From assembly GCA_017936585.1 (NCBI GenBank), contig JAGBFI010000038.1:46503-110502 (forward strand): DNA of 64,000 nucleotides, read 5' to 3'. Of this stretch, positions 13,001 to 43,558 are shown piece after piece. The notes under the pieces are model-generated. The model had not been told where the DNA came from. It worked only from the letters and a program-made list of their open reading frames with translations, and searched no databases. Both the position numbers and the translations under genes were made by a program. Source of the stretch: Clostridia bacterium (GTDB taxonomy: Bacteria > Bacillota > Clostridia > Christensenellales > UBA1242). Every line of letters begins with the position of its first letter. The stretch's first letter is position 1.

Positions 13001-15074
13001 CATATCCAAATGACACCTCTCCAAGCACAAGCTGTTCTGCAACATAAAGCACTTTTTCAGCATGAGTTGTTGAAGAAATGTAGCGATTTACGTCGCCAGA
13101 AAGCGAATAGATTTTTACATAATAATATCCAACCTCAGAGAACTCATATTCCGTGCTTTCCACTTCACTTTCAACAAGTGTTGCAAGTGCGAATTCGTCC
13201 AGATTGATTGAATCTTTGTTTTGCTCATAGGTGGCCTTGTCAATCTCAAAAATTTGCACCTTATATTTCGCCGCATTTGAGATTTCTTCCCAAGAGATTT
13301 TCTTTTCAGTGCTGTCGCCACCAAGAATTTCAGAAGGAGCACTCAAAATCGATAAAGTCTTATCTTCAAGTGTGGAAGAACTGATTGAATAAAGGTCATT
13401 TTCGCCAGCCTTTGCCACAATCTGAAAATCAAAAGAAGTTCCTTCAAAGCCCAAATCTTCAATTCTACCAGCAAAGGTCGCCGTGCCAGCTTCCGCATCA
13501 ATCGTCATATTTTCAACTTTTTTATAAGTCGAATTTTTATTGACCCAAATCTCATAATCGGTTGCGTTTTCCACAGTGTCAAAAGTGAAAATAGACTTTG
13601 TTTGATCTTCACTGTAAGCATGAGCAATCTCACCAGAAACTGACGCAAGTTTTGTCACCTTCACAGTTTCAGACGCGTCACTATCAATCACCGTCACGCG
13701 TTCCCCAGAAATCAAATTCACAAGATTTCGCGCTTTTTGAACAACCTCAAGATCATAAACTTTTGCTTCATCAGGCAATGTCACATTCAATTTTCTTACT
13801 GTCACATCTTCGCTCAAACCATTGTATATTTCACCCAAAATTTCAAGTTCAGTTGCGATGAGTGATGAGCCTGCAACGCTCATTTTCACAATATTTCCGT
13901 TCGTCTCATTTCCGCCAAGACCGGTTAGAGTGACTTTCCCAAGTTTGTAGATTTTGCCAAAATTCAAAGCATCACTTTCAAAGAAAAGTCCGTTTTCATT
14001 CTTTGCAACAATTCGGGTTTCATAAACGCCACTTGCAAGCCCTTCCAAATTGGTTGAAATTTTCTCAGCGGTTTCAAGCGTCTTTGTTTCGGTTAAAGTT
14101 CCTGTCAGTTCAACAACAATATTTTCCGCATTTACAACTTGTCCAATCTCAAGTTTTCCATCAATTGATGTTGCCGTTGGTGTTGCAAGTTTTTCGATTT
14201 GCAAACTCTCGCTTGCAACTGGAAATTTGTAACTTGAAGAACTTGTCGAAGCATCTGTCACAATCACTCTCAATGTGTGTTTTCCTGCAGAAACACTCTT
14301 AAATTTTGAAGTCAAGTTTTTTGAATTTGCGCTCTGTGGAGAATCAAGCAAAATTCCATCAAACTCAACTTGATATTTTGCTCCAGCATGGGCTGTCCAA
14401 GAAAGTTCACTTCCGTTCCAATGCAAATCTTCCACTTTCAACTCGTCAATGATGAACCCATATTTGAAAGTTTGCTCTGCACTTGGCAAACTTTCAGAAA
14501 AATATCCTCTCGCACAAGCTTTCACTGTGATGTGATATTCCCCTTTTTCAAGTTGGAAACTGTTTGCGTTGCATGGCTCATTGATTGGTGTTATCACAGC
14601 TTTTGAAGGGTCTGTTTTTGAATATGTAATTTTTTTACCTTGAATCCAATAAGTAGCCGTTGTTGGCCCTGACTCGTTGCCGTAGAACGCCGAAACAGCA
14701 TCCCATGTCAACAACCCGCTTGCGTCAACCGAAAAATTCTTTGGAGTTTCAAATGGTTTTGTGACAACAAGCTCCATTGAATCGAGACTATTTCCCTCAT
14801 ATGTGGCATAAACAAAACTCTTTCCTGTCTTCTTTGCCTTCACACTTCTGCCAACAATGTCAAAAAGTGACGAGTCTGAAAAGTGATAAACAATTTCATT
14901 CTTCTCCACCGACTGAACAGAAAGATGATCGTCAAGGTTTAAACTTTCGCCAAAAGAAAGCGTAACCTCTGAAGAATCAAAAGTTGCTTCGACTTTTTTG
15001 AAAGAGCATGCCGCCAGCACGCTCGACAACACGATTGTCAACAAGGACATCAGAACAATGTTAAACTTTTTCAT
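4074..15074 (-). CDS. Giant (3,666 aa) surface lipoprotein with many FN3/Ig-like modules and a C-terminal GLUG-repeat module
   Basis: This is an uninterrupted 11-kb ORF. The start was chosen at the ATG at 15072-15074, which has an AAGGGG RBS, giving MKKFNIVLMSLLTIVLSSVLAAC (lipobox LAAC). FN3-like strand signatures recur, for example LLTWDAVSA, ELSWTAHAGAKYQV, ISWEEISNAAKYKVQIF and RLSWDAVTDATGYLLNMY. The last roughly 356 aa carry GLUG-like repeats such as SLVAGLVITNGGRIENV, YSGVVAINQGNNAIVTGC, VFVGGICYTNYATIENC and QIGGIVVTSTSSSILRNC. Confidence 0.85.
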   Translation of the reverse strand: MKKFNIVLMSLLTIVLSSVLAACSFKKVEATFDSSEVTLSFGESLNLDDHLSVQSVEKNEIVYHFSDSSLFDIVGRSVKAKKTGKSFVYATYEGNSLDSMELVVTKPFETPKNFSVDASGLLTWDAVSAFYGNESGPTTATYWIQGKKITYSKTDPSKAVITPINEPCNANSFQLEKGEYHITVKACARGYFSESLPSAEQTFKYGFIIDELKVEDLHWNGSELSWTAHAGAKYQVEFDGILLDSPQSANSKNLTSKFKSVSAGKHTLRVIVTDASTSSSSYKFPVASESLQIEKLATPTATSIDGKLEIGQVVNAENIVVELTGTLTETKTLETAEKISTNLEGLASGVYETRIVAKNENGLFFESDALNFGKIYKLGKVTLTGLGGNETNGNIVKMSVAGSSLIATELEILGEIYNGLSEDVTVRKLNVTLPDEAKVYDLEVVQKARNLVNLISGERVTVIDSDASETVKVTKLASVSGEIAHAYSEDQTKSIFTFDTVENATDYEIWVNKNSTYKKVENMTIDAEAGTATFAGRIEDLGFEGTSFDFQIVAKAGENDLYSISSSTLEDKTLSILSAPSEILGGDSTEKKISWEEISNAAKYKVQIFEIDKATYEQNKDSINLDEFALATLVESEVESTEYEFSEVGYYYVKIYSLSGDVNRYISSTTHAEKVLYVAEQLVLGEVSFGYDEAFKSEFTNASGYFLKIGNVDEIDSYDIEISTNNNFEKYAEDESIYLLTDDFSTVANIKIVGRSSDEILWLPTETYSLGVQRIAAVSSDDLLLAEDAKTLTVNAKTGVTRVVIRDGISQKVGVNGQPAVYDIPQQNVFILDFEQNGSVFDSATKTYEISNGMVYLDSRDSTFTFNRLTQPSDLRYENGKIKFTDNQVGDAEYFVLDVACVLPNGQTQNLSIRLANQVTVTYQGLSLPLGEQSNFVSTSSGEVTVNLDVIIALVKANPIISQYYSQSTKLLFSAYAYQNRFKDGVMQISSLYATTQKDVSATSLEIEKMKTTPLRYDAETNMLTWDAVSVDASVTAATNYTITSNAFDTAVQTSALAYDLSEINFDENKTFTFQISVTNANYLESNLSNSVEIYKLCAIDKVTLTNNSLTFTTAESKYDYVAVTFGNAEPVQNTTGSVEISEDGTYTLQLIGRTEEIKGTDENLTAIKYFLNSNVSTWTVADMETVKPENCVVDFDGNTISWNEFSSTLSVLEYVIVFEDKAGSVYTYVATNPASEVKDGETYYSVNIQTDAVLLENLSNLAAGDISIKLYAHIKPSYSVVANGTVYYHAENEAGFNYSPYNEGQTIKKLETPAIADVEFVYETDESSEDYLVEAKLPDIKVTFTGNYGAGVFKVYKNDLWIEGLSVTQEDDSYSFIITSDMYDNFVGAGETLKLSIRVVNEGDNASAIPSTAGSVEIVRANNLTSVEFVTNADGFVTHAVEMKFDEENVAQVLGGVVLKVDFTPAGGEAATKYVLAPNAGDATAGILTFDLTSFVDQNLAAGGTIKLSAFVNSYSNVEANTYYLVCPQYVQSSQLSVLKKVDNVTMQSGGFVVDNSLNSDNTIYTVICNDNDEMFILSKENDFTFRFPDDWANGTYSVIIFASEEGAISSASTTLDVKLSRIASITAVRVSRTSDTNEVRLSWDAVTDATGYLLNMYKDDELVYTFEASGNSYTLEQIFGNNYKSLTETGKISLVTLQNDMDVVFGVVTQGNSTANDSKEYRFNATIKGNSMQTSNIQVDEFGVLTFDSVAGNEYLYRFIAADGTILKTWNVVMATSEKTKIDTSSLEAGTSAFNLELIVKGSTDFDGETSSNNSNFVLDSAPYTTVGKVITLYKVEDIANVVRNEQISSDIAFEIVETFDKMFASSKADGILTGEAVEFVPEAYEEAYTFSLSTLIALLKESGIEITDSKIYFWQHKASEDSVFHVISKEYEFTFNYTITTEFVDVVKVGTNTGNANIEKDFINTFATFVNSDGGDTETIGMYARITQLSGFEGESGYAQTKYISKTTLLKNDYFGSSTFAINLTSLFEQDDLLSLYGEFKVEFSKVAVVGGVYALSPWEEAPQTFIRLNPVDDIALVNGSMRWTNDNEHAEKFLVFFVSTLENEVVMGSYFYHETERTTYDPTNYISTGHKYYLGVRSINSNPYILSSKIVYISNEDGAMQIYKNQISSPLKIESGAAYINWTKSGDFVSTLTSESGYSEIADLLASEVFVSPFTFSLQDLVDGNVKVRFKFTSTATGAQGLSKSFDVNAIDLLPNLYKFGIDNGLYNLEERLRNVYTNAQSTDVRRVISGLQQAIENGSYGVANSRLLFDKYFETLQTGEYALQYCLLGNNKSLTSGWYDYSNNNGENLIYVNSEPQVAVIREPDPDNDMITSYKVRMKKSEVYAYDATNGAVLQETNNYIMTLGGFTFALNTSSMTLTRMNVETATSVTVYEEDVSGTTYVYFYINYNGGDSLLGVYGDDIYLAKDENLTMKMEIFAVGNNFSMSSKSKQFSVTFLKIANMKIDKGVFSWDTDHNRMTSVYVQRTDGGAETEVKIDASKTTSIFSLEGKGAGIYTVKFIIKGEVRDNVVYIDSGIDQIDRIFKLEAPGMNNDNGFIGITSGNNATYLSYCYSSENLFAYNIYNENSISKGLSVDIFDTRSDKTLPLYYEVGVTGMDETKAGFDPVLYEYKLTEEFASVFYALSMGSTAELSFLQDPSEYYLTKITHDSGKNLAVRSEVTTFAASMLDSVKNVRIENGILKWDEVAGRGGDNPLAVPETEGTKVVYKITIEQYTSNLEDGKTSETTFNQCIKYTAENYFDFAVLKEGEVGYVEGSFIKATVQALTLNVSEEEIVGADQLVEGGWLYGNVQFVDSERYILMGNGSILKGIDRLKAVEADMIGVVEGKLTWDYVTSKDIATVEMFNNAYAFIVETEDGEEIAGQFEVTLKDDTAEDSNTFGIIFSENLGEMSVGTYNIVVFVTQGQDNPNKVIKSFGCATEITKLATVASEHFEIISDSQTETLSLEKYFANYPENSLVLSYGENQITLTKDTFKLFIVASEADIVNSYPAGYYAACLIVGEDDALALRFMATKAGTIFSDLSDDFVLKRSPWEAEQSISWDEEKQEFSWNYDYYSFSTKVEAEEKRYAYLATETVSLFNDSGLTESTQLLLEEGEEFEMIDTLEGTISVRIKYKEVMYYISRSAYEHKIVDVLDEDGNTVVETMDGSSLFKVVEEVGEYSIVESEGRYFKVQSSAIVTPTFYVEATYANNVGGNVETISVRTYTTQDRVFRPTIVCNSISLVVRVKLNNASIQSKELVFDGSVAFNLFASGDGTSMNPYVIENADQFRNIAYRQTKDDMLVEFVEQTTIGSTVVTNTNMEESKYYFIITKDLDLGEIDGILFKGEFTGVIDGLQDNTTNTVIAYTSTGVTALSSSVTIRAEDSNVNTSTPAVPLNFKRGSAIFENLNSSAIIKNIDIDATYGNSLVDIKNHSLVAGLVITNGGRIENVNLTGFRNNFVGNISTTERTIMAYSGVVAINQGNNAIVTGCQLSTSMSLDDSGSSQLVFVGGICYTNYATIENCVASTEGGGQTISVNCQEGSSAIQIGGIVVTSTSSSILRNCTNNMNISATSSVSGNSIVAYIAGVADRVSGSFSDLSSTGVIATVGLNVSNITKSDLIAVIL

Positions 15075-15447
15075 ACAAACCCCTTTAAAACAGAATTTGG
15101 TCATCGCATAGTGTTCAATTATCTCAAGAGTTTTTCACTGAAAAAAAACTCTCCCAATATCTCACATTTATTTTAACACTTAAAGGGGGAATTTATCAAA
15201 TAAAAAACAAAGAAAAAATATTTTTAATATATATTTTATATATAAAATCCAGCGAACAAAAATAAAAAAATCGATTTTTGGGTGCTGAAAAATAAAAAAA
15301 TATTTCTTTGTACCTAATTTATGGGTGTATAGAAAATTTTAAAAATCAGAAAAAGAAAATAAAAAACACTAAAAAATGCAAATTTTTAATAAAAAAAATA
15401 AGTTTTTTATTTAATTTTAAATCATTTTTTGAATTTATTAAATATTT

Positions 15448-22400: not shown

Positions 22401-25400
22401 TTATCCATCAATTTCCCATGCAAGTTTTGGATATGAATTTTGAGCAAAACGCCAAATTTCTTCGTCAAACTGAACGCCTGAATTATAATATTCACCAGCT
22501 TTCAAACTGAAGCAATCTCTCGCCTCCGCCCAAGTGTCAGGCTTTTGCGAAATGAGAGTGGAAGCATTTGTGAAACAATTTTCAATTCTGCCATTTGAGA
22601 CGCCGGCCAGCCCGCCGAAAGAATAATTTCCCAAAACCTCCAAAATTGCATAGCTGTGATTCACGGTTTTTGATGTTTCCGCATTTTCATATGTGCCATA
22701 AAGTCCACCAATCATGCCCTTTCCGGTCATTGTTGAAAGGTCAATCGTGCCATTGAAATAGTTGTTTTCGCTTTTTGCTCTACCATTTCCAACAAGCCCA
22801 CCAACAACAAATTCATCAGCGGTGCCGCTTAAAACAATTCTTGCATTTGTTGCATTTTGTGAAATGTCCAACGATTTATGTGCACCTAAGTTCCCCGCAA
22901 GCCCGCCGGCAACAATCTTTTCCGCACCATTTGATGTGATTGAAATTTTTGCTCTGTTGTCATTTTTGACAATTGAACCTTGCCCTTTCCCACCAGATAT
23001 TTGTCCGGCAATTCCGCCAATTTTCAAATTTTCACCACTTGTGATGATGTTTATTTCAAGCAAGTTGATGCAATTTTCAATCTTGCCGCCAGCATTTTCA
23101 GCCACAACTCCGCCCAATGTCAGGCTTTGACTCGTTTCAAATGAAAGTTTACCTCTGACAATGCAGCCGACAATTTCTCCTGAATTATATCTTGCAATCG
23201 CACCAAACGCTGTCAAATTTGAATAGTTTTTTTCTTGCAAAACAAACTCAACATCTTTGATACTTCCGCAGTTCTTTGCAAAAAATCCGCCACTCTGAGC
23301 ATTGATATTTGTCAGCCTATACCCCTTGCCATCAAGTTGTCCCGTGAAAAGACTCCCTTGCCAAGACTCTCCTTCCATATCGATGTCATTTTCCAGCACA
23401 AAGTTTGAATATTTTGCATTTGAAAGCAGAACTTTCAATTCGTTTGAATTTTTGATTCCCATTTCCTGAGGAATAAGATAGAACGACAGCACAAAAAGCA
23501 CCAAGTTGAGCATGCCTACCCCAAATAATGTTAAAAAAACTGACTTCCAACCTTTGGAGATTTTGCTTTTTTGAATGAAATACAGCGTGAAATTGAGCAT
23601 TCCAATCACAACTGAATAAATCAATGTAACAATCAAAAACTCTTGACTGAAATACATATACACTTCTTTTGGCATAAACAATGATATTGTCAAAAGCAAC
23701 GTTGTGAAAAGAAGTGGGAAAAATTGCAGGAAAATCGTCAAAAATCTCTTCAAAAACTTGTCTTTTTTGATTGTTTTCACTTTGTTGTCATATTCAGGCT
23801 GAGTTTCCTCGCTTGTCTTGTAAACACCGGACAAGTCTTTGCCAACTCCCGTCACAGCAATTGCATTGACGGATGTGTCAAGCGACAAATCCAAAGCGGA
23901 CAATCTGACTTTTGCTTTTTCAGAAATCTCGCAGAAACTTTCAAACTTTTTGATTTTTTCAAGAGATTTAATGTATTTCTTGAAAGGCTCAAGTTGAAGT
24001 CGATAATAATCCAGGCCCTTCTTTGCTTCAAGCCCGTATTCCTTTTCAATTTCAAGCAGAATTTGCTCGTTTCGCAAAACAAAATCTTTTAATTTTGATT
24101 TCAAAGAAATCAAGTCAAGCAAATCATCCACAAACTCTTTGCGCTCGCCCTTAAACAGATTTGATTTGCTGACAATTCCGGCATAAACTTCATCCTCTTC
24201 GTCAGACGAAAGTTCAAGCAAAGTTTCCCACTCTGGCATTTGCGTCACTTTCACCCTAGACATGATGAGGTCATTGTCTGTTTTGCAATGTGCCTTGATT
24301 TTGATCAGCTGCCAATAAAGCGGCCCATTTGTCTTGTCTTTTGAGATAGCAATCGCGAGATATTTTTCCGCTTGCTTGAAAAAGCCCATATCCTGAAAGC
24401 TGTCTGCAATTTGTTTTGCAATCGCCGAAAGTTCTGGCTCTAAGTTGACATAAGAAAGATAAAAATCTAACTGCTCTTCAGCTTTGTTTAAATCCAAAAA
24501 TGCAACCGGCAAAATCAAAGAAGCAACTGTGGAAATGTATTGTGCGCGCGAACTTTCGTTGAGATATTTGAAAACCTCTTGCAGTTCCTCGTGATTTCTG
24601 TATGTCAATTTGTCTTCATCTGTTTTGAAATTTCGAAGAAGAAGGGTAATGTTACTTTGATTATGCCCCGGGTCAAGCTCCAAAATTTTCTTGTAATATT
24701 GCTTATCATCACTGCGCTGAGCCAGTGCAAAATAGAAAGAAATGAATCTGTCAACATCGTTTTTGTCAAAACACTTCAAAACTTTTTCGATCAAAGAATC
24801 GTCCAGAGTTTCAATCGCTTTGCTTTCTGCTTTTGAAACAAAATTTTCACGATTTGGAGAATTGTAGCCCGCCAAATACACCAAAAATGTTTCATAATAT
24901 TCTTCACTATCAAGACCTTCAACCAGTTTTTCCCATCTGTCAACAAAGTCCTCAGCGAAACTCTTTGATGCATATTTCAAAATCATGTCGATCTTTTCTT
25001 TGTCCTTGAAATTGGAAATATTTTGGAAAAATTCTTCTTGCGTTTTGATTTGCTTGTCTGCCAACATCTCAGCAAACAAAATCTCTGCATTGTATGGGTC
25101 TTTTTCAAGCAAATCTTTTGTGAATTCCTTTGCTGAAGCAAAATCACCATTTTTCAATGTCAAATAAATCCACTTGATTTTTGTTTCATCATTCAGATTG
25201 ATGTTGTCAACATCATAGTTTCCAAGGTCAGCCGGAACAACTGTGTCCAAGTCGACATAGGTTCGCTTGTCCGGTTCCACACTTTCCACTTTGACAGTGG
25301 AAATTTTCGCTTCTTGTTTGGTTGTTTTTTGCTTTTGATTTTCAACCATAACTTCCAAATCTTGCAAAAATGAAATTGTCCCCGCCTCAATAACGCTTTT

Positions 25401-26183
25401 GCAAGACGCCAAATCCTTTGGCAAATCCGAAAGTTGCACTTCGTCAAGAATAACAATTGCACTTGTCTTGGCTTTTTTCTTTTGCTTTATGAAATAAAAA
25501 TATCTGTCCAACAAAAATCTATATTCGTTGAACCCTTCCTTACTTGATGCCACAAGCAGCAAAACCTTGCTTGTCTGCAATGCTTGAAAAACATCCTCTT
25601 CCTTCACGCGTGGAGTTTGATGGTGGAGCGAAAACACAGAATTTTTTTCTGAAAGCTTTGCATAGATTTCGTCCACTTTTTCTTTTGCTTTTTCATATGC
25701 AACCGCACACAAAATGATGTCATATGTGCTTTTTGATGCTTTATCCTCGTGTAATTTTTTGATTTTTTCAACACGCTTTGCAATGTCTGTGTACGTTTTT
25801 GCAACCTCTGGAGGGGCAAACTTTGTTGCTTTTTGAAAGTCCACATCCTCACTCAAATTGCAAATTTGGTCAGAGAAAAAATTAGGCTTGTTCCTTGAGC
25901 CTCTTTTGTTGTTATAAAGAACAATTCTGTTCTTCGCAAGAGCCTTGCCAAAATGTGCTTCAAACGATTTTGGATAGAGTGCAATGATTTTGTCAAACTC
26001 CTCAACGGCATCATCAAACTGCATTTGACGCAAAATTTCATATGCACCAACCGTGAGGACTTCTTCCTCTTTTGAGGCGTGTTCGTCCACATACAAAGTC
26101 CCGCAGAACTTGCATTTAACCATGTTCTGCCCGACAACTTTATATTCTCGTCCTCCACAATTTTTACAAACACGCTCTCTCAT
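22401..26183 (-). CDS. 1,260-aa multidomain membrane protein with N-terminal Zn-ribbon, TPR-like repeats, a TIR-like alpha/beta module, three TM helices and an extracytoplasmic GLUG-repeat domain
   Basis: The N-terminus has CKNCGG...CKFCG. Long helical repeat regions follow. The TM cluster is LTIFLQFFPLLFTTLLLTISLF, FLIVTLIYSVVIGMLNFTLYFI and VFLTLFGVGMLNLVLFVLSFYLI. The C-terminal repeats include LGGVVAENAGGKIENC, IGGIAGQISGG, VAGGLAGNLG, VVGGLVGNG, MIGGLYGTYEN and FGGLAGVSNGRIENC. It has an AAGGAAA RBS and starts 8 nt after the ATPase gene. Confidence 0.8.
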   Translation of the reverse strand: MRERVCKNCGGREYKVVGQNMVKCKFCGTLYVDEHASKEEEVLTVGAYEILRQMQFDDAVEEFDKIIALYPKSFEAHFGKALAKNRIVLYNNKRGSRNKPNFFSDQICNLSEDVDFQKATKFAPPEVAKTYTDIAKRVEKIKKLHEDKASKSTYDIILCAVAYEKAKEKVDEIYAKLSEKNSVFSLHHQTPRVKEEDVFQALQTSKVLLLVASSKEGFNEYRFLLDRYFYFIKQKKKAKTSAIVILDEVQLSDLPKDLASCKSVIEAGTISFLQDLEVMVENQKQKTTKQEAKISTVKVESVEPDKRTYVDLDTVVPADLGNYDVDNINLNDETKIKWIYLTLKNGDFASAKEFTKDLLEKDPYNAEILFAEMLADKQIKTQEEFFQNISNFKDKEKIDMILKYASKSFAEDFVDRWEKLVEGLDSEEYYETFLVYLAGYNSPNRENFVSKAESKAIETLDDSLIEKVLKCFDKNDVDRFISFYFALAQRSDDKQYYKKILELDPGHNQSNITLLLRNFKTDEDKLTYRNHEELQEVFKYLNESSRAQYISTVASLILPVAFLDLNKAEEQLDFYLSYVNLEPELSAIAKQIADSFQDMGFFKQAEKYLAIAISKDKTNGPLYWQLIKIKAHCKTDNDLIMSRVKVTQMPEWETLLELSSDEEDEVYAGIVSKSNLFKGERKEFVDDLLDLISLKSKLKDFVLRNEQILLEIEKEYGLEAKKGLDYYRLQLEPFKKYIKSLEKIKKFESFCEISEKAKVRLSALDLSLDTSVNAIAVTGVGKDLSGVYKTSEETQPEYDNKVKTIKKDKFLKRFLTIFLQFFPLLFTTLLLTISLFMPKEVYMYFSQEFLIVTLIYSVVIGMLNFTLYFIQKSKISKGWKSVFLTLFGVGMLNLVLFVLSFYLIPQEMGIKNSNELKVLLSNAKYSNFVLENDIDMEGESWQGSLFTGQLDGKGYRLTNINAQSGGFFAKNCGSIKDVEFVLQEKNYSNLTAFGAIARYNSGEIVGCIVRGKLSFETSQSLTLGGVVAENAGGKIENCINLLEINIITSGENLKIGGIAGQISGGKGQGSIVKNDNRAKISITSNGAEKIVAGGLAGNLGAHKSLDISQNATNARIVLSGTADEFVVGGLVGNGRAKSENNYFNGTIDLSTMTGKGMIGGLYGTYENAETSKTVNHSYAILEVLGNYSFGGLAGVSNGRIENCFTNASTLISQKPDTWAEARDCFSLKAGEYYNSGVQFDEEIWRFAQNSYPKLAWEIDG

Positions 26184-26191
26184 AGTTTTCC

Positions 26192-27340
26192 TTAATTTTG
26201 ATTTGTTGTCTTTTTGTTTTTCTTTATGTAACTGCTAATTTCAGTATTGTAGGCTTCAAAACTTGAAATCTCTTTTTCTGTCACACTTGGTGGCATGCTG
26301 TCTAAAACTCTGTCAAAATCCTCATTCGTCACAAGCACAACTTTGTCCGTTGCAATTGCCTGAAGAAGAGGCTCATCCTTGGCACGGTCACAAAGTTCTT
26401 CAATGTCCGCACCGCTGTAGTTCTCCGTTTGAGCCACAATTCTGTCAATATTGAAGTCTTTGGCAACTGGCACTCTCTTCATATTTTTCTCAAGCATATA
26501 TTTTCTTGCCGCAGCATCAGGCAAAGGAAGATAAATCTTCTGAGAAAATCTACCCGAACGCATTGCCGCACTGTCAATATCCCAAGGTCTGTTTGTTGCC
26601 CCAAGCAAAAGCAGATTTGGATTTCTTCCGGCAAAGCCGTCAATTTGTTGCAAAAATTCGTTCACACGCTTGTCATTGTGAGTGTCAAGCCCACGTTTGC
26701 CAATCAAACTGTCCATTTCGTCAATGAAGATGATGGCACGGTCTTGCTTGTTTGCTTCTTCAAAAAGTGAGTTGATATTTTTCTCGCTGTCGCCCACCCA
26801 TTTGCTGACAATATCTGAGCCTTTGACTGCATAAAACTTTGCGCCGACCTCATTTGCAATTGCCTTTGCAATCATGGTCTTTCCTGTTCCTGGAGGGCCA
26901 TACAAAAGCACGCCGCCACCAGTTTTTTTGCCATACATTTTGTATTTTTCAGGATATTTCACAGGGTTTATCATCTTGATTGTGATGGCTTTTTTCACGT
27001 CTTCAAGTCCCGCAACATCATTGAATGTGATTTTTGGGATTTCCGCTGTTTGCCATTTTTTGAGAGTCTCGTCCTTTTCCTCTTCCACATCGCTCTTTTT
27101 GTCGATTTTTGCAGGCTTCTTGCCCAAGTTGTCCGCAATGTCAACAAGTTTGCGCGCCCTTTCCATGCGAACTTCTTTCAACTTCCCTTTGCTGCGAACA
27201 GCAATCTGCATCATTGTTTCACTTGCAAGCAAGAAATTACGCTTTGCAAGCGCCAAATTTCCTCTCTCTTTCGCTTCTTTACCTTTTTTCATGTAAAGTT
27301 CAAAAGTGTCCGACAAAATTGTGATGTTGTTTTCTGACAT
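26192..27340 (-). CDS. MIT-domain AAA+ ATPase, Vps4/CdvC-like
   Basis: The ATG at 27338-27340 has a GGAGAGGG RBS. The N-terminal roughly 75 aa (ELYMKKGKEAKERGNLALAKRNFLLASETMMQIAVRSKGKLKEVRMERARKLVDIADNL) follow the MIT three-helix pattern. A single AAA cassette follows, with Walker A GPPGTGKT, SKWVGDSEK, Walker B IIFIDEMD and SRH ATNRPWDIDSAAMRSGRF. The C-terminal segment DFDRVLDSMPPSVTEKEISSFEAY resembles the Vps4 C-terminal helix region. Confidence 0.75.
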   Translation of the reverse strand: MSENNITILSDTFELYMKKGKEAKERGNLALAKRNFLLASETMMQIAVRSKGKLKEVRMERARKLVDIADNLGKKPAKIDKKSDVEEEKDETLKKWQTAEIPKITFNDVAGLEDVKKAITIKMINPVKYPEKYKMYGKKTGGGVLLYGPPGTGKTMIAKAIANEVGAKFYAVKGSDIVSKWVGDSEKNINSLFEEANKQDRAIIFIDEMDSLIGKRGLDTHNDKRVNEFLQQIDGFAGRNPNLLLLGATNRPWDIDSAAMRSGRFSQKIYLPLPDAAARKYMLEKNMKRVPVAKDFNIDRIVAQTENYSGADIEELCDRAKDEPLLQAIATDKVVLVTNEDFDRVLDSMPPSVTEKEISSFEAYNTEISSYIKKNKKTTNQN

Positions 27341-27382: not shown

Positions 27383-27982
27383 TTATTTGTCTGCGTCTGC
27401 TTCGATTTTTTTTCTGAGTTCTTCCATTTCTTTTTCGATGCTTTCTGTTGAAAGTTCGTCTTGCGTTGCTTGCTCCATGATGAATTTTTCAAGTTCTTCA
27501 TCGCTCATTTGCTTGCCACTCTTGTCTTTGCCAGCGTTATAGAATGTTTCTTGGCTCATTTCCATGAAGTTGTCCATTTGGTCTGTTTGAGTTTCAACTG
27601 CCACCATAGCTTCCTCAAACTGAGCTTGAATTTTTGCAAATTCTTTTGCATCAGCAAGCTTTGTCATTTCCTTTGAAATGTCACTCATTCCACGCAAGAA
27701 CTCGCTTGTCATCATTGTCACATCTTTCATTTGAGCAGTGATTTCAAAGTTGAGAAGCATCTCCTGTGCACGCTTTTGTTGTTGAACAGTCATCTTATAT
27801 CCAGAAAGAGCCAAGTTGAATTGTGTGTCCAAATCCTTAAGTTTCGCTCTTTTTGCGGCTTCAATAAACACCTTTTTTTGTTCTTCCAAGCGGTTGATTT
27901 GCTTGTTCATTGTGTTGATTGTTCTTTTAATCAACATCTTCTTCTCGATTTCTTTTTGTTGTTTAGATTTAAAAAGTCCCAT
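27383..27982 (-). CDS. ESCRT-III (Snf7/CHMP-family)-like protein, paralogue B (199 aa)
   Basis: It starts MGLFKSKQQKEIEKK, followed by a basic helical hairpin and then an acidic C-terminal half. The segment MTSEFLRGMSDISKEMTKLADAKEFAKIQAQFEEAMVAVETQTDQMDNFME parallels the alpha3-alpha5 region of CHMP2/3-type proteins. The C-terminal amphipathic tail is SIEKEMEELRKKIEADADK. It has a GGAGGA RBS. Confidence 0.65.
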   Translation of the reverse strand: MGLFKSKQQKEIEKKMLIKRTINTMNKQINRLEEQKKVFIEAAKRAKLKDLDTQFNLALSGYKMTVQQQKRAQEMLLNFEITAQMKDVTMMTSEFLRGMSDISKEMTKLADAKEFAKIQAQFEEAMVAVETQTDQMDNFMEMSQETFYNAGKDKSGKQMSDEELEKFIMEQATQDELSTESIEKEMEELRKKIEADADK

Positions 27983-27986
27983 TTTA

Positions 27987-28598
27987 TCATTCCTCCATCT
28001 TCATTTTTTTCTTTTTGATTGGTTCTTCTTTTTCAACATCTTGCATCAATTCGTTTTCTTCTGCAAGTTGACTCTCTTTTTCAAACATTGTCAAAATTTC
28101 TTCCTCATTCTTGCCAATTCCATAAATTGGTTGATTGAGGTCATATGCCGATTGCACCTCTGTGAAAAGTTCGTCCGCGTTAGTGAGCACATCTTCTGAA
28201 GCCACCCTTGTTACCAAAGCTTTGTTCAAGAATTTTGCCAAGCCACGCTGGTCTTGCAAAAGCTCGCTGAGCGGAACCTTTGTTTGAGTTTTATAGAACG
28301 CGTTGCTGTCATATGCTTCTTTCAACTTGTTCATAAGCCTGATGTTGTAAAGCAAATACATCCCTCTTTCCATGCAAGTCTGTTTTTCTTCGTGTAGATG
28401 AGAAATCTTCTTTGCATAGAAAAGTTGAAGTTCTTTGTTCTTCTCTTTCTTCCCCTTTTCCATGAGCGCATCAATTTCTTTCAGCTTTTGATAGACTTCC
28501 GCTTCCACCGTACGCTCTTGTCTTTCAAGTTCGCAAATGGAATTGACCAAATCCTCTCTGTTTATTTTCTTAAATTTGTTACGTCTAAATGGCCACAT
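27987..28598 (-). CDS. ESCRT-III (Snf7/CHMP-family)-like protein, paralogue A (203 aa)
   Basis: It has an AAGGAG RBS. The basic N-terminus is MWPFRRNKFKKINRED. A long coiled-coil hairpin follows (ELERQERTVEAEVYQKLKEIDALMEKGKKEKNKELQLFYAKKISHLHEEK...), then an acidic C-terminal region ending EEPIKKKKMKMEE. The overall layout is Snf7/CHMP4/CdvB-like. Confidence 0.55.
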   Translation of the reverse strand: MWPFRRNKFKKINREDLVNSICELERQERTVEAEVYQKLKEIDALMEKGKKEKNKELQLFYAKKISHLHEEKQTCMERGMYLLYNIRLMNKLKEAYDSNAFYKTQTKVPLSELLQDQRGLAKFLNKALVTRVASEDVLTNADELFTEVQSAYDLNQPIYGIGKNEEEILTMFEKESQLAEENELMQDVEKEEPIKKKKMKMEE

Positions 28599-28609: not shown

Positions 28610-28969
28610 TTAATAATTATCCCCTTCGTTTATTTTGTAAATTCGCTCAAGCAAATTGTCATATTTTTTTCTCAGTGTTTCATCCGCAAGTTCCAGTGCT
28701 TTCTGACATTCAGGCAAATATATCGCGCTTTTATATTTCACCGGATTTGAAAACAACTCGTCCTCATTTGACATCTCAAATTTGACAAGCATCTGCCCCC
28801 AATAGGCATCCGCACATTTTTCGTCATATTGAGCCGCAAGCAGAAAGTTCAGTTTTGCTTGCTCAAAAAAGCCGTCCGTCAAATTCAGATATCCAAGCTT
28901 GAGTTCTTTCAAAACCCTTTCCGCCACCTCCGCAGGCAGCCCTTGCGATGTTTGATAAGTTCTTTTCAT
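28610..28969 (-). CDS. Small (119 aa) helical TPR-like protein
   Basis: The start overlaps the upstream stop (TGATG). The sequence GFFEQAKLNFLLAAQYDEKCADAYWGQMLVK is TPR-hairpin-like. It resembles residues about 55-85 of the 1,260-aa protein in the same operon. Confidence 0.5.
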   Translation of the reverse strand: MKRTYQTSQGLPAEVAERVLKELKLGYLNLTDGFFEQAKLNFLLAAQYDEKCADAYWGQMLVKFEMSNEDELFSNPVKYKSAIYLPECQKALELADETLRKKYDNLLERIYKINEGDNY

Positions 28970-29376
28970 CAGGCTTGTTCTTCCTTCTTTCTTTGAACTA
29001 TGTATGCTTCCACCTCTTCAAGCATCCTAAAGCACGTCTCTTGAGTGTTGTCTTTTGCCACAACAATCTTCAAATCGTCCAATTTGTTGGCAATTTTGCT
29101 GTCCACCAAAAGGGCTTTTTGATTTGTTGTTGGATTGAAAAATCTGATGTTGTCCTTCACTTCCACAAGTCTACGGCAAAGTTCATCATTGCCGTTGGCA
29201 TAAACGATGACGCTTTCAACATTTGCAACCATGTTTTCGATTGACTTTTTGTTTTTAAGAACTCCCTTTGATCCCCCATTCGCCTCGTCTCGTGGTTTTT
29301 TGATGTATTCTCTGCAAATGTAGTACACTGCAAATCCCACCACTGCCAAAATGATAATCACATATAAAGCAACCAT
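28969..29376 (-). CDS. Small (135 aa) N-terminally anchored membrane protein
   Basis: It has a strong AAGGAGGA RBS. The N-terminal TM segment is MVALYVIIILAVVGFAVYYI, followed by a basic stretch and a soluble domain of about 100 aa. I recognise no family. Confidence 0.6.
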   Translation of the reverse strand: MVALYVIIILAVVGFAVYYICREYIKKPRDEANGGSKGVLKNKKSIENMVANVESVIVYANGNDELCRRLVEVKDNIRFFNPTTNQKALLVDSKIANKLDDLKIVVAKDNTQETCFRMLEEVEAYIVQRKKEEQA

Positions 29377-29385: not shown

Positions 29386-30213
29386 TTAAAGTTTTTCGCC
29401 ACATTTGCTGCAGAACAGCGCATCATCCGCATTTTTCGCAAAGCACTTTGGGCATTTGTTTCCAATTTTCACTTTCATTCCGCACTTGTTGCAAAACTTT
29501 GCATCTTCTGGCAAGCTTGCGCCGCATCCTCTGCACACAAAGCTTTGAGATTTTTTCATGTTTTTGTATGCATTGTTAAGTTTCGCATAGTCCTGCTCAT
29601 CAATGATAATGTTTGCAATGTTGAAAGAAAAAACCGCAATTCCATATTCACTTTGAAGCTTGTGACTGAGTGCCGTCAGCACTTTTTGTGACATCTCTTT
29701 TTTGCAAACTGCAATTTGATTGAAAAGAACTCTATTTTCTTTGATATAGTCCACAATGACCGTTTCCATCACGGACACGACATTCGACTGCAACCTTTCT
29801 TGCAATGCGTCCGCAGTGAGGTCTTCTGATGCGCCGACAAGATAAAGAAAACTCTTTCTTGGGTCGCCAATCTGCACCTCGAAATCACCGCTGAAGTCGC
29901 AATAATAGTTTTCTTGAAGTTGCTCATCATACATCAAAAGCATTTGAGGCGTTCCCCAAAGCATTTTGAGTTTTGCCGTCTTGGACATGAAAAGAACTTC
30001 CAAAATTGCGTCAACCTCTTCTTTTGTATCCACAAATGCGGAAAGTTGAAATTTTCCTGACGACAAAGTTTGAAGCATCTGCCCATCCTTGATCACAATG
30101 GCGTTGTGAGTTTCAGGCACGATGAGTGTCTTTTTGAAATCGGCTGACTCAAGTTTCACTCTTGAGAATAAGTTGTCATTGTTTCCGCTAAATTTAATTA
30201 TATTTTGTTCCAT
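29386..30213 (-). CDS. SPFH/band-7-like protein with a C-terminal double zinc ribbon (YdjI / COG4260-like)
   Basis: The ATG at 30211-30213 has a GGAG RBS. The body resembles the YdjI / 'virion core protein'-type SPFH family (IVPETHNAIVIKDGQMLQTLSSGKF..., ...EYGIAVFSFNIANIIIDE). The C-terminus is FVCRGCGASLPEDAKFCNKCGMKVKIGNKCPKCFAKNADDALFCSKCG, which is four CxxC pairs forming two zinc ribbons. Confidence 0.65.
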   Translation of the reverse strand: MEQNIIKFSGNNDNLFSRVKLESADFKKTLIVPETHNAIVIKDGQMLQTLSSGKFQLSAFVDTKEEVDAILEVLFMSKTAKLKMLWGTPQMLLMYDEQLQENYYCDFSGDFEVQIGDPRKSFLYLVGASEDLTADALQERLQSNVVSVMETVIVDYIKENRVLFNQIAVCKKEMSQKVLTALSHKLQSEYGIAVFSFNIANIIIDEQDYAKLNNAYKNMKKSQSFVCRGCGASLPEDAKFCNKCGMKVKIGNKCPKCFAKNADDALFCSKCGEKL

Positions 30214-30255
30214 CAAAACTCCATGGGAAGTCAAGATATAAATTCCCTTAGTTGA

Positions 30256-30284
30256 ATTTTAACAAAATAAATGTCAAAAGTCAA
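30256..30284 (-). promoter_or_regulatory. Putative sigma-A promoter of the ESCRT-like operon
   Basis: The minus-strand read is TTGACT (30284-30279), a 17-nt spacer, then TAAAAT (30261-30256). It lies about 45 nt upstream of the first ATG of the operon. Confidence 0.5.
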
Positions 30285-39118: not shown

Positions 39119-39193
39119 TGGTGCTTCCGTCAGGATTCGAACCCGAACAAATGGTTCCGAAGACCATTGTGCTATCCATTACACCACGAAAGC
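39119..39193 (-). tRNA. tRNA-Arg (anticodon UCG)
   Basis: The reverse complement is GCTTTCGTGGTGTAATGGATAGCACAATGGTCTTCGGAACCATTTGTTCGGGTTCGAATCCTGACGGAAGCACCA. The acceptor stem is 7 bp, the anticodon stem is ATGGT/ACCAT with loop CTTCGGA, and it has a TTCGAAT T-loop and an encoded CCA. Confidence 0.8.
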
Positions 39194-39432
39194 ATATGTT
39201 TGTTGAGAATCTTCTCGGCTGGCAAAAGTAAACTTTTGATTGAATGTCGTTAGAGGTTTGTTCTCTGGAATGCTGCTTTTATCGCTTTTTAATATACTCC
39301 TTCTTGTCTCAAATGTCAAATTTATTTGTTTGTTGGCTCTCTTTGCTTGCTTTTTTTGTTCTTTATGTTTAAAATATATTTATATTATCAAGACTACATA
39401 CATAACTTTCGTGGTCGAAAAGGGGAATTTTT

Positions 39433-41430: not shown

Positions 41431-41450
41431 CCAACATCAACTTTGTTAAA

Positions 41451-41478
41451 GGCACGCTTAAAAGGCGTGTCTTTTTTT
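41451..41478 (+). terminator. Rho-independent terminator after the coupling-protein gene
   Basis: The stem GGCACGC / GCGTGTC with a 7-nt loop is followed by TTTTTTT. Confidence 0.7.
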
Positions 41479-41535
41479 GTTTGAAACTTTCCATTTTTTT
41501 GTGACAAATAGAATTTTAAAATCATAAAAGAAAGT

Positions 41536-43506: not shown

Positions 43507-43558
43507 ATTAAATTTATGGACAAAAAAAAGACATTCAAAACAATGAATGCCTTTTTTG

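Follow-up and report, generated by a model that had tools for sequence, protein, structure and literature searches.

Whether bacteria possess an ATPase acting on ESCRT-III-like proteins in the manner of Vps4 is the question raised by a gene located in a 64,000-nucleotide stretch of clostridial DNA, the whole of which is hereafter called the window. According to a 2025 review, a Vps4-like ATPase appears to be absent in bacteria, and the recycling of PspA and Vipp1, the bacterial relatives of ESCRT-III, is thereby left open (PMC7619361, PMC8281802). From the letters of the window alone, the gene had been read as coding for a bacterial Vps4/CdvC-like ATPase, featuring an MIT-like three-helix N-terminus, a single AAA cassette and a Vps4-type C-terminal helix (the original prediction). 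On the evidence collected here we consider it fairly probable, if well short of certain, that the protein is a bacterial MIT-AAA ATPase working like Vps4/CdvC on polymers of the products of the two upstream genes, E3a and E3b; this function is inferred, not demonstrated.

Organization of the gene cluster

The ATPase gene is one of seven tightly packed genes, all on the same strand and spaced by -1 to 42 nt, with no convincing terminator between them. A promoter-like site, supported by a consensus match only, lies just upstream of the first gene. From the promoter-like site to the last gene, the features are:

30256..30284, minus strand: promoter-like site, TTGACT-17-TAAAAT with an extended -10 TG
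29386..30234, minus strand: SPFH (Band_7_1) protein, two zinc ribbons at its C-terminus (Pfam; MBP3431968.1)
28969..29376, minus strand: 135-aa protein, helical in its cytoplasmic part, with a single transmembrane helix at the N-terminus (no family match)
28610..28969, minus strand: 119-aa soluble helical protein, TPR-like by eye (no family match)
27987..28598, minus strand: E3a, first ESCRT-III-like protein, 203 aa (hhalign to CHMP/Snf7)
27383..27982, minus strand: E3b, second ESCRT-III-like protein, 199 aa (hhalign to CHMP/Snf7)
26192..27340, minus strand: MIT-AAA ATPase, ATG start, 382 aa
22401..26183, minus strand: 1260-aa membrane protein (MBP3431962.1, named "tetratricopeptide repeat protein" by NCBI)

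The ATPase reading frame also contains an alternative TTG start at 27358, which would yield 388 aa; the ATG is preferred, since it is preceded by a Shine-Dalgarno-like GGAGAGG and orthologues start at the equivalent position. The gene begins 42 nt past E3b, the second of the two genes of about 200 codons, which bears out the claim that it directly follows two ESCRT-III-like genes.

The protein encoded by the first gene, named "SPFH domain-containing protein" by NCBI, is YdjI-like and matches Pfam Band_7_1 (1.2e-13), Zn_Ribbon_1 (2.3e-12) and DZR (1.7e-9); its true start is likely the ATG at 30213, giving 275 aa. The 135-aa protein, whose hydrophobic segment spans residues 1-19 and whose stop overlaps the start of the next gene by 1 nt, is a possible membrane anchor. 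The gene for the 119-aa protein sits in every case between the SPFH gene and the ESCRT-III-like pair, the equivalent slot being occupied by genes of 104-144 aa in loci L083, L085, L086, L090 and L091. The large protein downstream of the ATPase has a zinc ribbon at its N-terminus, TPRs and, at about residues 150-290, a degenerate TIR-like domain, besides a long helical region; it crosses the membrane with three helices (about 809-898), and its C-terminus, on the extracellular side, carries GLUG-like repeats (weak Glug match). TIR_2 is matched by its orthologues (1.6e-9, 2e-13 and 8e-6), whereas Pfam detected no TIR domain in the window copy, which, when aligned to the orthologue domains, turns out to have lost the conserved "NEW" glutamate. 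For the remaining cluster proteins the NCBI names are just "ATP-binding protein" and "hypothetical protein".

Domain architecture of the ATPase

All motifs quoted in the original prediction were found in the 382-aa protein, which can be divided as follows:

27131..27334, minus strand: MIT-like three-helix bundle, residues 3-70 (AlphaFold2, Foldseek, profile search)
27041..27130, minus strand: charged linker, residues 71-100 (predicted disordered)
26336..27040, minus strand: single classic-clade AAA cassette, large domain and lid, residues 101-335 (Pfam, motifs)
26192..26335, minus strand: C-terminal helix region (336-366, Vps4_C-like) and short basic tail, residues 336-382 plus stop

Within the cassette, Pfam AAA matches residues 144-273 (E 2.8e-42), the sole AAA domain of the protein, and AAA_lid_3 matches residues 295-329 (E 3.2e-9). 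The expected motifs are in place: Walker A (GPPGTGKT, residues 148-155, including K154), the SKWVGDSEK block (179-187) with pore loop K180-W181-V182, Walker B (IIFIDEMD, 203-210, with D207-E208), sensor-1 (GATNRP, 247-252, with N250) and the SRH (MRSGRF, 260-265, with the arginine fingers R261 and R264). Only one Walker A is found in the protein and in the entire window. K154, D207, N250, R261 and R264 are invariant in the 23 relatives compared, at 43-64% identity. Judged by its motifs, the protein has what the Vps4/CdvC family requires of the AAA cassette: it is single, belongs to the classic clade, has Walker A and B intact, and contains a pore loop 1 with an aromatic residue, sensor-1 and both arginines of the SRH.

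The C-terminal helix, which includes DFDRVLDSMPPSVTEKEISSFEAY (residues 341-364), is matched by Pfam Vps4_C over residues 336-366 at 19.4 bits (E 1e-3), below the cut-off of 21.3; the same model matches 14 of the 23 relatives, with a best E of 4.8e-7. Vps4_C also matches the D2 domains of p97 and archaeal Cdc48, so that the helix cannot be taken as diagnostic: the predicted helix is present, without being specific to the Vps4 type. The absence of a beta-domain, also foreseen, was confirmed, the lid helix and the final one being only about 8 residues apart, versus about 50 in yeast Vps4. The ATPase differs in this from eukaryotic Vps4, and therefore has no site for a Vta1-type cofactor.

The N-terminus is predicted by AlphaFold2 to form three helices, at residues 3-25, 29-48 and 52-70, with pLDDT about 97; RARKLVDIADNL corresponds to residues 61-72. 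What could be learned about this region came from the family profile and the structure model: Pfam MIT does not match it, and single-sequence searches against PDB sequences and Pfam were unhelpful, the matches being an influenza polymerase and Sld5, both with E>0.05. The Foldseek comparison suggested in the original prediction was run against 350,542 PDB chains, and the MIT domain of Sulfolobus Vps4/CdvC came first, second and fourth. About 15 of the top 50 matches are MIT domains, including those of VPS4A/B, yeast Vps4, spartin, MITD1 and katanin; the MIT matches have TM values of 0.66-0.78, and the VPS4A domain superposes on 63 residues with an rmsd of 1.4 A. The best Foldseek E-value is only 0.019. 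When the family profile was compared to PDB sequences, 6 out of 13 matches, the top four included, were MIT chains, the best being chitin synthase MIT (E 1.2e-3), with two Sulfolobus Vps4 MIT entries at E about 0.05-0.07 and calpain-7 at 0.065. An hhalign comparison with a shallow, Vps4-only MIT alignment reached 6.6% only.

Every single MIT statistic is thus weak, and the match lists for bundles and hairpins contain other folds as well (de novo designs, ribosomal S20, 14-3-3 and BAR domains). The N-terminal A/L/K pattern is conserved across the 23 relatives, which, along with the invariant catalytic residues, indicates that the features of the ATPase are more than chance. The proposed MIT-like N-terminus thus survives as an ordered three-helix region, for which MIT domains lead both the profile and the Foldseek matches, none with a strong E-value. 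As far as a predicted model can tell, the MIT fold criterion of the Vps4/CdvC family is met, the binding of MIM motifs being inferred only. Residues 71-100 correspond to the acidic/basic linker described beforehand: they are charged and predicted to be disordered (pLDDT 56-71, without secondary structure), and vary in length and sequence among relatives.

Position among AAA ATPases

The proposed placement of the cassette in an AAA-clade phylogeny was carried out with distance trees. Under six schemes, NJ bootstrap values of 78-95% support a group formed by the bacterial MIT-AAA clade and the meiotic clade (Vps4, katanin, ATAD1, spastin), versus at most 4% for a grouping with Cdc48-D2 alone; the cassette falls outside FtsH, PAN and Cdc48-D1, and the FtsH sequences form a separate 100% clade. 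Together with relatives from Chloroflexota and Planctomycetota, the ATPase makes up a bacterial clade of its own (97% NJ), sister to the whole meiotic clade and not nested with Vps4. The trees were built by distance methods only, without archaeal CdvC sequences and without maximum likelihood, and long-branch attraction could partly explain the grouping with the meiotic clade. Most references behind the 78-95% figure were confirmed by exact database look-up; FtsH was taken from the E. coli genome record, p97 D1/D2 from PDB alignments and archaeal Cdc48 from loci, while the unverified spastin and NSF segments were left out in five of the six schemes.

Yeast Vps4 shares 43% identity with the ATPase across the AAA domain, and the Vps4 pore loop, S-K-W-x-G-[DE]-S-E-K, is almost identical; "NRPWDID" matches the "NFPWDID" of katanin, and Vps4, katanin and spastin similarly carry an MIT-type N-domain. 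Unlike the meiotic clade (Vps4, katanin p60, spastin, ATAD1/Msp1), to which it branches as sister, the ATPase has no deletion in the SRH: it keeps R-S-G-R-F, like Cdc48, PAN and FtsH, where the Vps4, katanin and spastin references have lost two residues. The R-x-G-R motif so retained is ancestral; Cdc48 D2 shares both this motif and a C-terminal Vps4_C-like helix with the ATPase. The Vps4/CdvC-like placement originally claimed stands, then, as far as the cassette joins the meiotic clade, but nesting with Vps4 and the SRH deletion are both missing.

Single-domain scores are highest for Cdc48/p97/VAT D2 (204.7 bits with p97 D2, 220 bits with NCBIfam CDC48), well short of the 360 bits reached by true Cdc48 D2 domains. 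With custom clade HMMs, Cdc48-D2 came out slightly ahead of the meiotic clade as a match for the cassette, an ambiguous result; the overall AAA score profile is flat and meiotic-like, lacking the high cross-scores seen among PAN, FtsH and Cdc48. Identity with Cdc48/p97/VAT was rejected on the basis of the single Walker A, of the absence of matches to CDC48_N and CDC48_2 and of the NCBIfam score, 220 bits against a cut-off of 803: unlike Cdc48, the ATPase has one AAA cassette, not two, and no double-psi-barrel N-domain. FtsH was similarly discarded, there being no hydrophobic segment and no Peptidase_M41 domain, with 204 bits against a cut-off of 600 and a separate clade in the tree; PAN, ClpX and RuvB were ruled out by architecture, curated cut-offs and tree position.

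The NCBIfam CdvC model (NF041006, cell_div_CdvC) aligns over its full length, ATPase residues 9-366 pairing with model positions 7-366 of 370, at 207.8 bits versus a cut-off of 650. Yeast Vps4 itself scores just 244 bits, hence the model is specific to archaeal CdvC. Given the separate bacterial clade, the R-S-G-R-F motif and the 208 bits out of a required 650, the protein is not a CdvC orthologue; on sequence grounds it is Vps4-like, without being an orthologue of Vps4/CdvC. A disordered or non-MIT N-terminus, together with a cassette grouping robustly with FtsH, ClpX or generic bacterial AAA proteins, would have refuted the initial reading: neither was found, and the reading is therefore supported.

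The upstream proteins and conservation of the module

E3a begins with MWPFRRNKF and has a basic N-terminal half and an acidic C-terminal half; E3b begins with MGLFKSK. Neither matches Pfam Snf7, even at E<=10, and E3a has no Pfam match of any kind; no match was found when the E3a profile was compared to PDB sequences, and a first homologue search with E3b retrieved only relatives at >=84% identity. The relationship emerged from hhalign comparisons with verified CHMP/Snf7 sequences: the E3a family alignment (A4) reached a probability of 90.4% (P 1.4e-6) on 139 columns that begin with the "LFG" motif of the N-terminus, and the E3b alignment (A3) reached 91.4% (P 8.8e-7) on 126 columns, all collinear, versus at most 1.6% for reversed decoys. 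Identity with PspA was rejected for both, Pfam PspA_IM30 (PF04012) being unmatched and hhalign yielding at most 6.7%; of the four PspA-family references used, E. coli PspA was verified, and three (PspA/Vipp1/LiaH) were approximate, unverified sequences.

Structural support for E3b is limited. AlphaFold2, supplied with an alignment built from database matches only, predicts helices at 7-48, 52-106, 112-149 and 161-197 with low confidence (pLDDT 66). ESCRT-III proteins are enriched among the Foldseek matches of the model, none of which is significant (all E at least 0.4), and the profile match to CHMP2A has E 0.3. The predicted topology, the charge asymmetry and the MGLFKSK N-terminus fit an ESCRT-III protein. 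The C-terminal amphipathic helix of E3b, IEKEMEELRKK, resembles the MIM1 motif, and the pattern [IL]xxx[LMI]xx[LV][RK] is found at this end in most orthologues from all three phyla, weakly in L086/L087.

The core formed by E3a, E3b and the MIT-AAA ATPase is found in Clostridia, Planctomycetota (Planctomycetales) and Chloroflexota. The gene order of the cluster is maintained down to 43-49% ATPase identity. Clostridial loci add the SPFH protein, kept at the equivalent position in L001-3, L083, L085, L090 and L091, and the large Zn-ribbon/TPR/TIR membrane protein. In Planctomycetales, Chloroflexota and most metagenome loci the core is present without an SPFH gene, which makes the SPFH protein an accessory rather than a core partner. 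Metagenome loci of >=6 kb, seeded on E3b relatives, contain the AAA family in 24 out of 36 cases and E3a in 29 out of 36; the MIT-like N-terminus is found in 21 of the 24 with the AAA family. About one third of the distant E3b relatives have no adjacent ATPase. A contig profile search with the ATPase alignment, which used generic Walker-A patterns and does not amount to a taxonomic census, listed mostly archaeal Cdc48 matches and at least 4 useful bacterial loci. In two loci a BrxL-like (Lon ATPase) gene is inserted beside the ATPase. Housekeeping genes, such as that for pyruvate formate-lyase, surround the cluster both in the window and in close relatives, with no obvious defence island.

Proposed function and alternative explanations

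The most likely function of the ATPase, inferred as it is, would be that of a Vps4-like disassemblase for ESCRT-III-like polymers. E3a and E3b would be divergent Snf7/CHMP-type ESCRT-III proteins, attaching by their basic N-termini to the cytoplasmic face of the membrane and polymerizing there; the SPFH/zinc-ribbon scaffold, the single-pass membrane protein and the small helical protein would probably organize the polymer. The MIT domain may dock on the C-terminal amphipathic helix of E3b, perhaps also on that of E3a, the flexible linker handing the substrate to a hexameric AAA ring, whose K-W-V pore loop would thread and unfold E3 subunits at the expense of ATP. Disassembly or remodelling of the polymer would then serve membrane repair, scission or subunit turnover, and the downstream Zn-ribbon/TPR/TIR-like protein would probably couple the machine to an envelope signal. 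Hexamer formation, MIT-MIM binding, polymerization and physiological role are only inferred, with no interaction or activity data; domain architecture, intact catalytic motifs, similarity in sequence and fold, and gene linkage across phyla are what the analysis shows. That the whole constitutes a genuine bacterial ESCRT-III/Vps4-type machine, with two Snf7/CHMP-like subunits and a dedicated MIT-AAA disassemblase, widespread in Clostridia, Planctomycetota and Chloroflexota and missed by annotation because its ESCRT-III subunits escape Pfam, is a tentative proposal, to which we assign slightly less than an even chance.

A Band_7_1 gene heads the operon in all clostridial loci, the cassette scores similarly on Cdc48-D2, FtsH and CdvC models, and E3a and E3b belong to no Pfam family: the ATPase might accordingly be an SPFH-associated unfoldase, like FtsH in HflK/C cages, with E3a and E3b as generic coiled-coil adaptors and, as real substrates, either membrane proteins or one of two operon products, SPFH or TIR/TPR. 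We regard this as quite unlikely, since the core persists without an SPFH gene in so many loci, the match of E3a and E3b to the CHMP/Snf7 profile far exceeds that of decoys, and the ATPase has neither a protease domain nor a transmembrane anchor. It is also conceivable, and compatible with the disassemblase reading, that the cluster is an anti-phage or abortive-infection system, in which the TIR membrane protein acts as sensor or effector, the AAA protein, with or without the BrxL-like Lon ATPase, is a defence component and membrane remodelling is secondary. The significant TIR_2 domains of the orthologues, the BrxL-like neighbour in two loci and the matches of the PADLOC IetA and TRIP13 models to the AAA domain all point in that direction. 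The PADLOC and NCBIfam IteA matches, however, stem from general AAA likeness (116-137 bits, one of the cut-offs being 510), the other cluster proteins match no defence model, the TIR-like domain of the window is undetected by Pfam and devoid of the "NEW" glutamate, the genomic surroundings are of the housekeeping type, and a literature search found no paper joining SPFH, TIR domain, anti-phage and AAA; a defence role in this sense is thus unlikely. A phage or known-defence origin was separately rejected, PHROGs and PADLOC having given generic AAA matches only.

The resemblance could, finally, be superficial, arising from a generic three-helix or TPR-like bundle, ordinary coiled-coil neighbours and an uncharacterized bacterial classic-AAA ATPase. 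The structural E-values for MIT and ESCRT-III are indeed non-significant when taken singly, helical bundles and hairpins match many folds, and the NCBI names go no further than "ATP-binding protein" and "hypothetical protein". Against this, profile comparison to the PDB, Foldseek, with its three MIT domains within the first four ranks, and decoy-controlled hhalign converge on the same families, the linkage of the three genes is conserved in three phyla, and the meiotic-clade grouping is stable under the six distance schemes; we therefore consider mere superficial likeness very unlikely.

Relation to known systems

A close parallel is with archaeal CdvC/Vps4 (Sulfolobus; MIT domain in PDB 2w2u and 2v6y), which has the same order of parts in about 370-380 aa: an MIT-like bundle, a flexible linker, one AAA cassette and a C-terminal helix, without a beta-domain. 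Both ATPases are encoded directly after ESCRT-III-like genes, and the Sulfolobus MIT domain is the best structural match. In contrast to the archaeal system, the partners in the window have diverged beyond the reach of Pfam Snf7, neither CdvA nor a winged-helix ESCRT-II-like gene was noticed among the loci examined, and the accessory genes are those for SPFH, TPR/TIR membrane and small helical proteins. Co-encoding of an ESCRT-III-superfamily protein with a Band_7/SPFH protein is also known from the Bacillus subtilis ydjFGHI operon (PspA and the SPFH protein YdjI), YdjI being reportedly needed for placing PspA at the membrane; unlike in ydj, the polymer proteins here are Snf7/CHMP-like, not PspA, and a dedicated MIT-AAA ATPase is present. 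SPFH and zinc-ribbon proteins are found in archaeal "Meth_adaptin" ESCRT loci (PMC10936438), and zinc ribbons are carried by the SPFH protein of the present cluster too.

Bacterial MIT-AAA ATPases have been noted in a survey (PMC11237479), the accessible part of which describes the snf7 gene as "displaced" in their operons, with the snf7 partner missing, and the ATPase as followed by a large TPR-containing membrane protein, as in the window; the Planctomycetales and Phycisphaerae relatives found here may belong to that set. Differently from the operons described in that part, two ESCRT-III-like genes lie immediately upstream here and are conserved with the ATPase. The survey's list of phyla does not include Firmicutes/Clostridia and Chloroflexota, and, as far as the same portion goes, accessory genes of the SPFH, TIR and BrxL-like types are not mentioned.

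Recent papers confine the coupling of ESCRT-III with Vps4 to archaea and eukaryotes, while the window pairs ESCRT-III-like genes with a Vps4-like one in gut Clostridia. The predicted interaction of the ATPase with the E3 proteins can be tested directly with purified proteins and peptides and, if true, these would provide compact, small soluble proteins for in vitro studies of ATP-driven ESCRT-III remodelling. The coupling would then either predate the archaeal stem or be able to move between domains, and the picture of when the ESCRT-III-Vps4 partnership arose would change. If the machine is genuine, the clostridial connection with both an SPFH scaffold and a TIR-bearing protein of the envelope suggests a membrane-repair arm placed on a sensor of damage or infection: abundant human-gut Clostridia would thus harbour an unstudied pathway of membrane remodelling or repair, possibly tied to TIR signalling.

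The ATPase gene and its product

All sequence strings quoted in the original prediction are found in the ATPase, the features of which are the following (residue numbers are those of the 382-aa product):

26192..27340, minus strand: ATPase ORF, 382 aa from ATG
Residues 61-72: RARKLVDIADNL
Residues 148-155: Walker A, GPPGTGKT
Residues 179-187: SKWVGDSEK
Residues 203-210: Walker B, IIFIDEMD
Residues 247-252: GATNRP
Residues 260-265: MRSGRF
Residues 341-364: DFDRVLDSMPPSVTEKEISSFEAY

An upstream TTG at 27358 is an alternative start (388 aa); GGAGAGG lies ahead of the ATG, and orthologues begin at the corresponding position. The gene is number six in a run of seven co-directional genes, separated by -1 to 42 nt, each preceded by a Shine-Dalgarno-like sequence, with a promoter-like site upstream of the first; no convincing terminator was found within the cluster. 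At 28969 (minus strand), the genes for a 135-aa membrane protein and a 119-aa protein share one base (ATGA), which suggests translational coupling within the operon. No other Walker-A-bearing AAA gene is present in the 64-kb window. The sequence belongs to a Clostridia MAG. NCBI names for its proteins MBP3431962-68 are limited to "ATP-binding protein", "hypothetical protein", "SPFH domain-containing protein" and "tetratricopeptide repeat protein". Human-gut metagenomes commonly contain relatives at 80-88% identity, among them one named Candidatus Caccovivens.

The N-terminal region

For the N-terminus, held in the original prediction to be MIT-like, single-sequence searches gave no useful match, and the Pfam MIT model does not match it. 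Relatives at 43-64% identity were retrieved from 1.8 billion cluster representatives; their alignment begins at about residue 5, so the N-terminal region is a conserved part of the family. Based on 23 of these relatives, AlphaFold2 models residues 1-95 as three helices (3-25, 29-48, 52-70; pLDDT ~97) followed by a stretch of low confidence (71-95). Among 350,542 PDB chains, Foldseek placed Sulfolobus Vps4/CdvC MIT domains (2w2u, 2v6y; TM 0.70) at ranks 1, 2 and 4. MIT domains account for about 15 of the top 50 matches, including VPS4B, yeast Vps4, spartin, MITD1 (TM 0.78) and katanin, and the VPS4A domain superposes with an rmsd of 1.4 Å over 63 residues. With an HMM of the family N-termini, 6 of 13 matches to PDB sequences, the top four included, are MIT domains: chitin synthase is the best (E 1.2e-3), and two Sulfolobus Vps4 entries (E 0.044-0.075), calpain-7 (E 0.065) and VPS4B (E 1.3) were also found. 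Comparison by hhalign with a shallow, Vps4-only MIT alignment gave 6.6%, decoys about 0.7%. Individually weak statistics are expected for a helical bundle of 70 residues; since several methods converge, "MIT-like" remains the best description of the N-terminus, every single score being weak.

The AAA cassette and the C-terminus

Pfam recognizes a single AAA domain (E 2.8e-42) and a single AAA_lid_3. NCBIfam scores are flat and all far under the cut-offs (CDC48 220, CdvC 208, FtsH 204, PAN 203 bits); of these curated models, only CdvC aligns end to end. Against CdvC, CDC48, PAN and FtsH, yeast Vps4 scores 244, 238, 213 and 185 bits and katanin 212, 263, 225 and 189, while p97-D2, PAN and FtsH reach 275-360 bits with one another's models. 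A profile as flat as that of bona fide meiotic-clade proteins places the cassette outside the Cdc48/PAN/FtsH core.

Neighbour-joining trees (200 bootstraps) were built from 49 sequences and 257 columns. References were confirmed by exact database look-up (yeast Vps4, VPS4B, katanin, ATAD1, PAN, Rpt6) or taken from the E. coli genome record (FtsH), PDB alignments (p97 D1/D2) and fetched loci (archaeal Cdc48); verification is lacking for the spastin and NSF segments alone. The ATPase family is supported at 90%, and its union with MIT-AAA proteins of Chloroflexota and Planctomycetota at 97%. This bacterial clade falls with Vps4, spastin, katanin and ATAD1, apart from Cdc48 D1/D2, PAN/Rpt, FtsH and NSF, at 86%; in six variants, among them trees limited to verified sequences, trees on gamma or Scoredist distances, and trees without gapped columns or without the C-terminus, the split holds at 78-95%, against at most 4% for a grouping of the family with D2 only. 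Membership of the Cdc48/PAN/FtsH core was rejected on the flat score profile and this split.

Three points weigh against full membership of the meiotic clade: R-S-G-R-F is retained in the ATPase at a place where the meiotic references lack two residues, custom clade HMMs score Cdc48-D2 (245-270 bits) slightly above the meiotic set (197-240 bits), and the trees rest on distance methods only, without archaeal CdvC or maximum likelihood. The predicted Vps4/CdvC-like character is supported by the distance trees, which put the cassette on the meiotic side, away from FtsH and Cdc48; orthology to CdvC was rejected on a score far under the cut-off and a separate bacterial clade. Judging from sequence alone, we regard the ATPase as representing a bacterial lineage of its own, located at the Vps4/Cdc48-D2 junction and in all likelihood a sister group of the meiotic clade.

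The Vps4-type C-terminal helix is present, but is not specific to Vps4. The Pfam Vps4_C model matches residues 336-366 below threshold (19.4 bits, cut-off 21.3). In the family, 14 of 23 members give a match, the best at E 4.8e-7; among controls, p97 D2 (22.4 bits), one archaeal Cdc48 D2 (26.1 bits) and katanin (33 bits) do so too, and PAN, FtsH and ATAD1 do not. The helix is real, but common to Vps4-like and Cdc48-D2 domains. The beta-domain is absent, as anticipated, with about 8 residues against about 50 at that place in yeast Vps4.

Variants occur within the family alignment (A1). Walker B reads DD instead of DE, the catalytic glutamate being replaced, in P0337, P0328, P0278 and P0385, which suggests slow or regulatory ATPases. 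More than half of the sampled members (P0247, P0251, P0253, P0261, P0262, P0263, P0272, P0277, P0278, P0289, P0294, P0328, P0385, P0310) carry, past a low-complexity linker, an extra, apparently beta-rich C-terminal domain of ~110 aa (columns ~500-600), missing from the window ATPase. P0241 (704 aa) and P0252 (710 aa), two relatives at 53% identity and about twice the length, match the query in two stretches, which could mean a tandem arrangement or a fusion of MIT-AAA proteins.

The two upstream genes

The products of the two genes preceding the ATPase, E3a (203 aa) and E3b (199 aa), match nothing in Pfam, NCBIfam, PHROG or PADLOC. Alignments of their orthologues from diverse loci were compared by hhalign with six verified eukaryotic ESCRT-III proteins (CHMP1B, 2A, 3, 4B, 6 and Snf7): E3b reached 91.4% (P 8.8e-7, 126 collinear columns) and E3a 90.4% (P 1.4e-6, 139 columns from the N-terminal LFG motif), against at most 1.6% for reversed-sequence decoys and 6.7% for PspA-family sequences. 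The ATPase gene follows these two ESCRT-III-like genes. In a mediocre AlphaFold2 model of E3b (pLDDT 66), the predicted helices (7-48, 52-106, 112-149, 161-197) follow the ESCRT-III layout; all Foldseek matches of this model have E>=0.4. Both proteins, like CHMPs, have a basic N-terminal and an acidic C-terminal half. Most E3b orthologues end in [IL]xxx[LMI]xx[LV][RK] (IEKEMEELRKK in the window, LRAELADLK in Planctomycetales, IEEGLRKVR in Chloroflexota), a pattern resembling the MIM1 consensus, except for its central arginine. At E<=1e-3, some 2,500 proteins in the database belong to the E3b family; of these, the best 120 listed have no source name or are "hypothetical protein", none with a precomputed Pfam domain.

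Gene linkage

Most loci of the 43-64% relatives show the order SPFH, a gene of ~105-145 aa, two genes of ~190-215 aa, ATPase. In locus L086 SPFH lies downstream instead, the short contig L087 covers no more than the direct neighbours of the ATPase, and the locus of P0348, with a divergent N-terminus, lacks E3 genes. Among the matches listed, MIT-AAA relatives at 36-41% full-length identity come from Planctomycetales, Phycisphaerae and Chloroflexota. E3a- and E3b-like genes lie directly upstream in the Planctomycetales and one Chloroflexota locus; in another Chloroflexota locus E3b alone is present, ~3.5 kb upstream, and the short Phycisphaerae contig has neither. In the Chloroflexota MAG locus L004 (1384-5288), two paralogues are interleaved (E3a, ATPase-a, E3b, ATPase-b), ATPase-a being the bacterial member nearest to Vps4 and spastin by tree and HMM scores. 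Reverse seeding collected 80 metagenome loci with E3b relatives (25-91% identity); in the 36 of at least 6 kb, E3a is found in 29 and the AAA family in 24, 21 of these with an MIT-like N-terminus.

Orthologues of the 1260-aa membrane protein encoded downstream share its Zn-ribbon/TPR/TIR_2 layout, their gene also lying downstream of the ATPase, but upstream in L086; Glug was additionally detected in L091. TIR_2 is significant (E 1.6e-9 to 2e-13) in L091:8495-11779, L086:2875-5784 and L090:6766-9723. In the aligned window region (25300-25750, minus strand; residues ~150-290), the FFAE segment is gone, as is the conserved NEW glutamate (YRFLLDRY), and Pfam detects no TIR there, so the domain is probably degenerate and inactive. 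A BrxL-like Lon-type ATPase gene (BrxL_N and BrxL_ATPase) directly follows the MIT-AAA gene at L086:8786-10252 and L090:5298-6722, an insertion that hints at some connection with phage defence or proteolysis.

Other features of the window

A tRNA-Arg is followed by the gene for a coupling protein of TraG/VirD4 type (39433-41430) and by a pair of giant ORFs (2306 and 1722 aa, 45004-57093). The whole region, 39119-57093, probably represents an integrative conjugative element that entered at this tRNA. A 3676-aa ORF (4074-15104, minus strand) is flanked by a pseudouridine synthase gene and by a 276-aa ORF that follows bipA/typA; on the minus strand at 945-1032, immediately downstream of the bipA-like gene, Rfam RF00162 identifies a SAM (S-box) riboswitch with 52 bits.

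Discussion

The ATPase might be an SPFH-associated unfoldase, a reading in keeping with the SPFH gene of most close loci; SPFH is found in 12 of the 36 E3b-seeded loci, and is absent from the separately examined Planctomycetales, Phycisphaerae and Chloroflexota loci. Linkage across loci identifies E3a-E3b-MIT-AAA as the conserved core, and the SPFH and TIR/TPR proteins as clade-specific accessories. The cluster might also be a TIR/BrxL-linked defence system, which is compatible with a Vps4-like activity; BrxL was noted in two loci, and the window TIR appears degenerate. Chance resemblance to MIT and ESCRT-III could be invoked from the structural scores, which for both are weak taken singly; it has to contend with agreement among methods at the N-terminus and with the low decoy values.

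According to one report, some ESCRT loci of archaea include SPFH and zinc-ribbon proteins (PMC10936438); according to another, bacteria appear to lack a Vps4-like ATPase (PMC7619361, 2025). In the literature searched, we found no account of an operon from Clostridia, Planctomycetota or Chloroflexota that combines Snf7-like genes with an MIT-AAA ATPase. The MIT-AAA architecture in bacteria is not wholly new; what appears undescribed is its conserved pairing with two Snf7/CHMP-like genes, together with its occurrence in Clostridia and the accessory set of SPFH and TIR proteins.

A Vps4-like cycle is the best-supported reading of the ATPase with E3a and E3b. Its domain architecture, intact motifs, signals of homology and gene linkage are observed, its physiology inferred. 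E3a and E3b would polymerise on a membrane, as we infer, and the MIT domain would, again by inference, engage a C-terminal helix; a presumed hexameric AAA ring would then thread subunits via the K180-W181-V182 pore loop, powered by K154, D207-E208, N250 and R261/R264.
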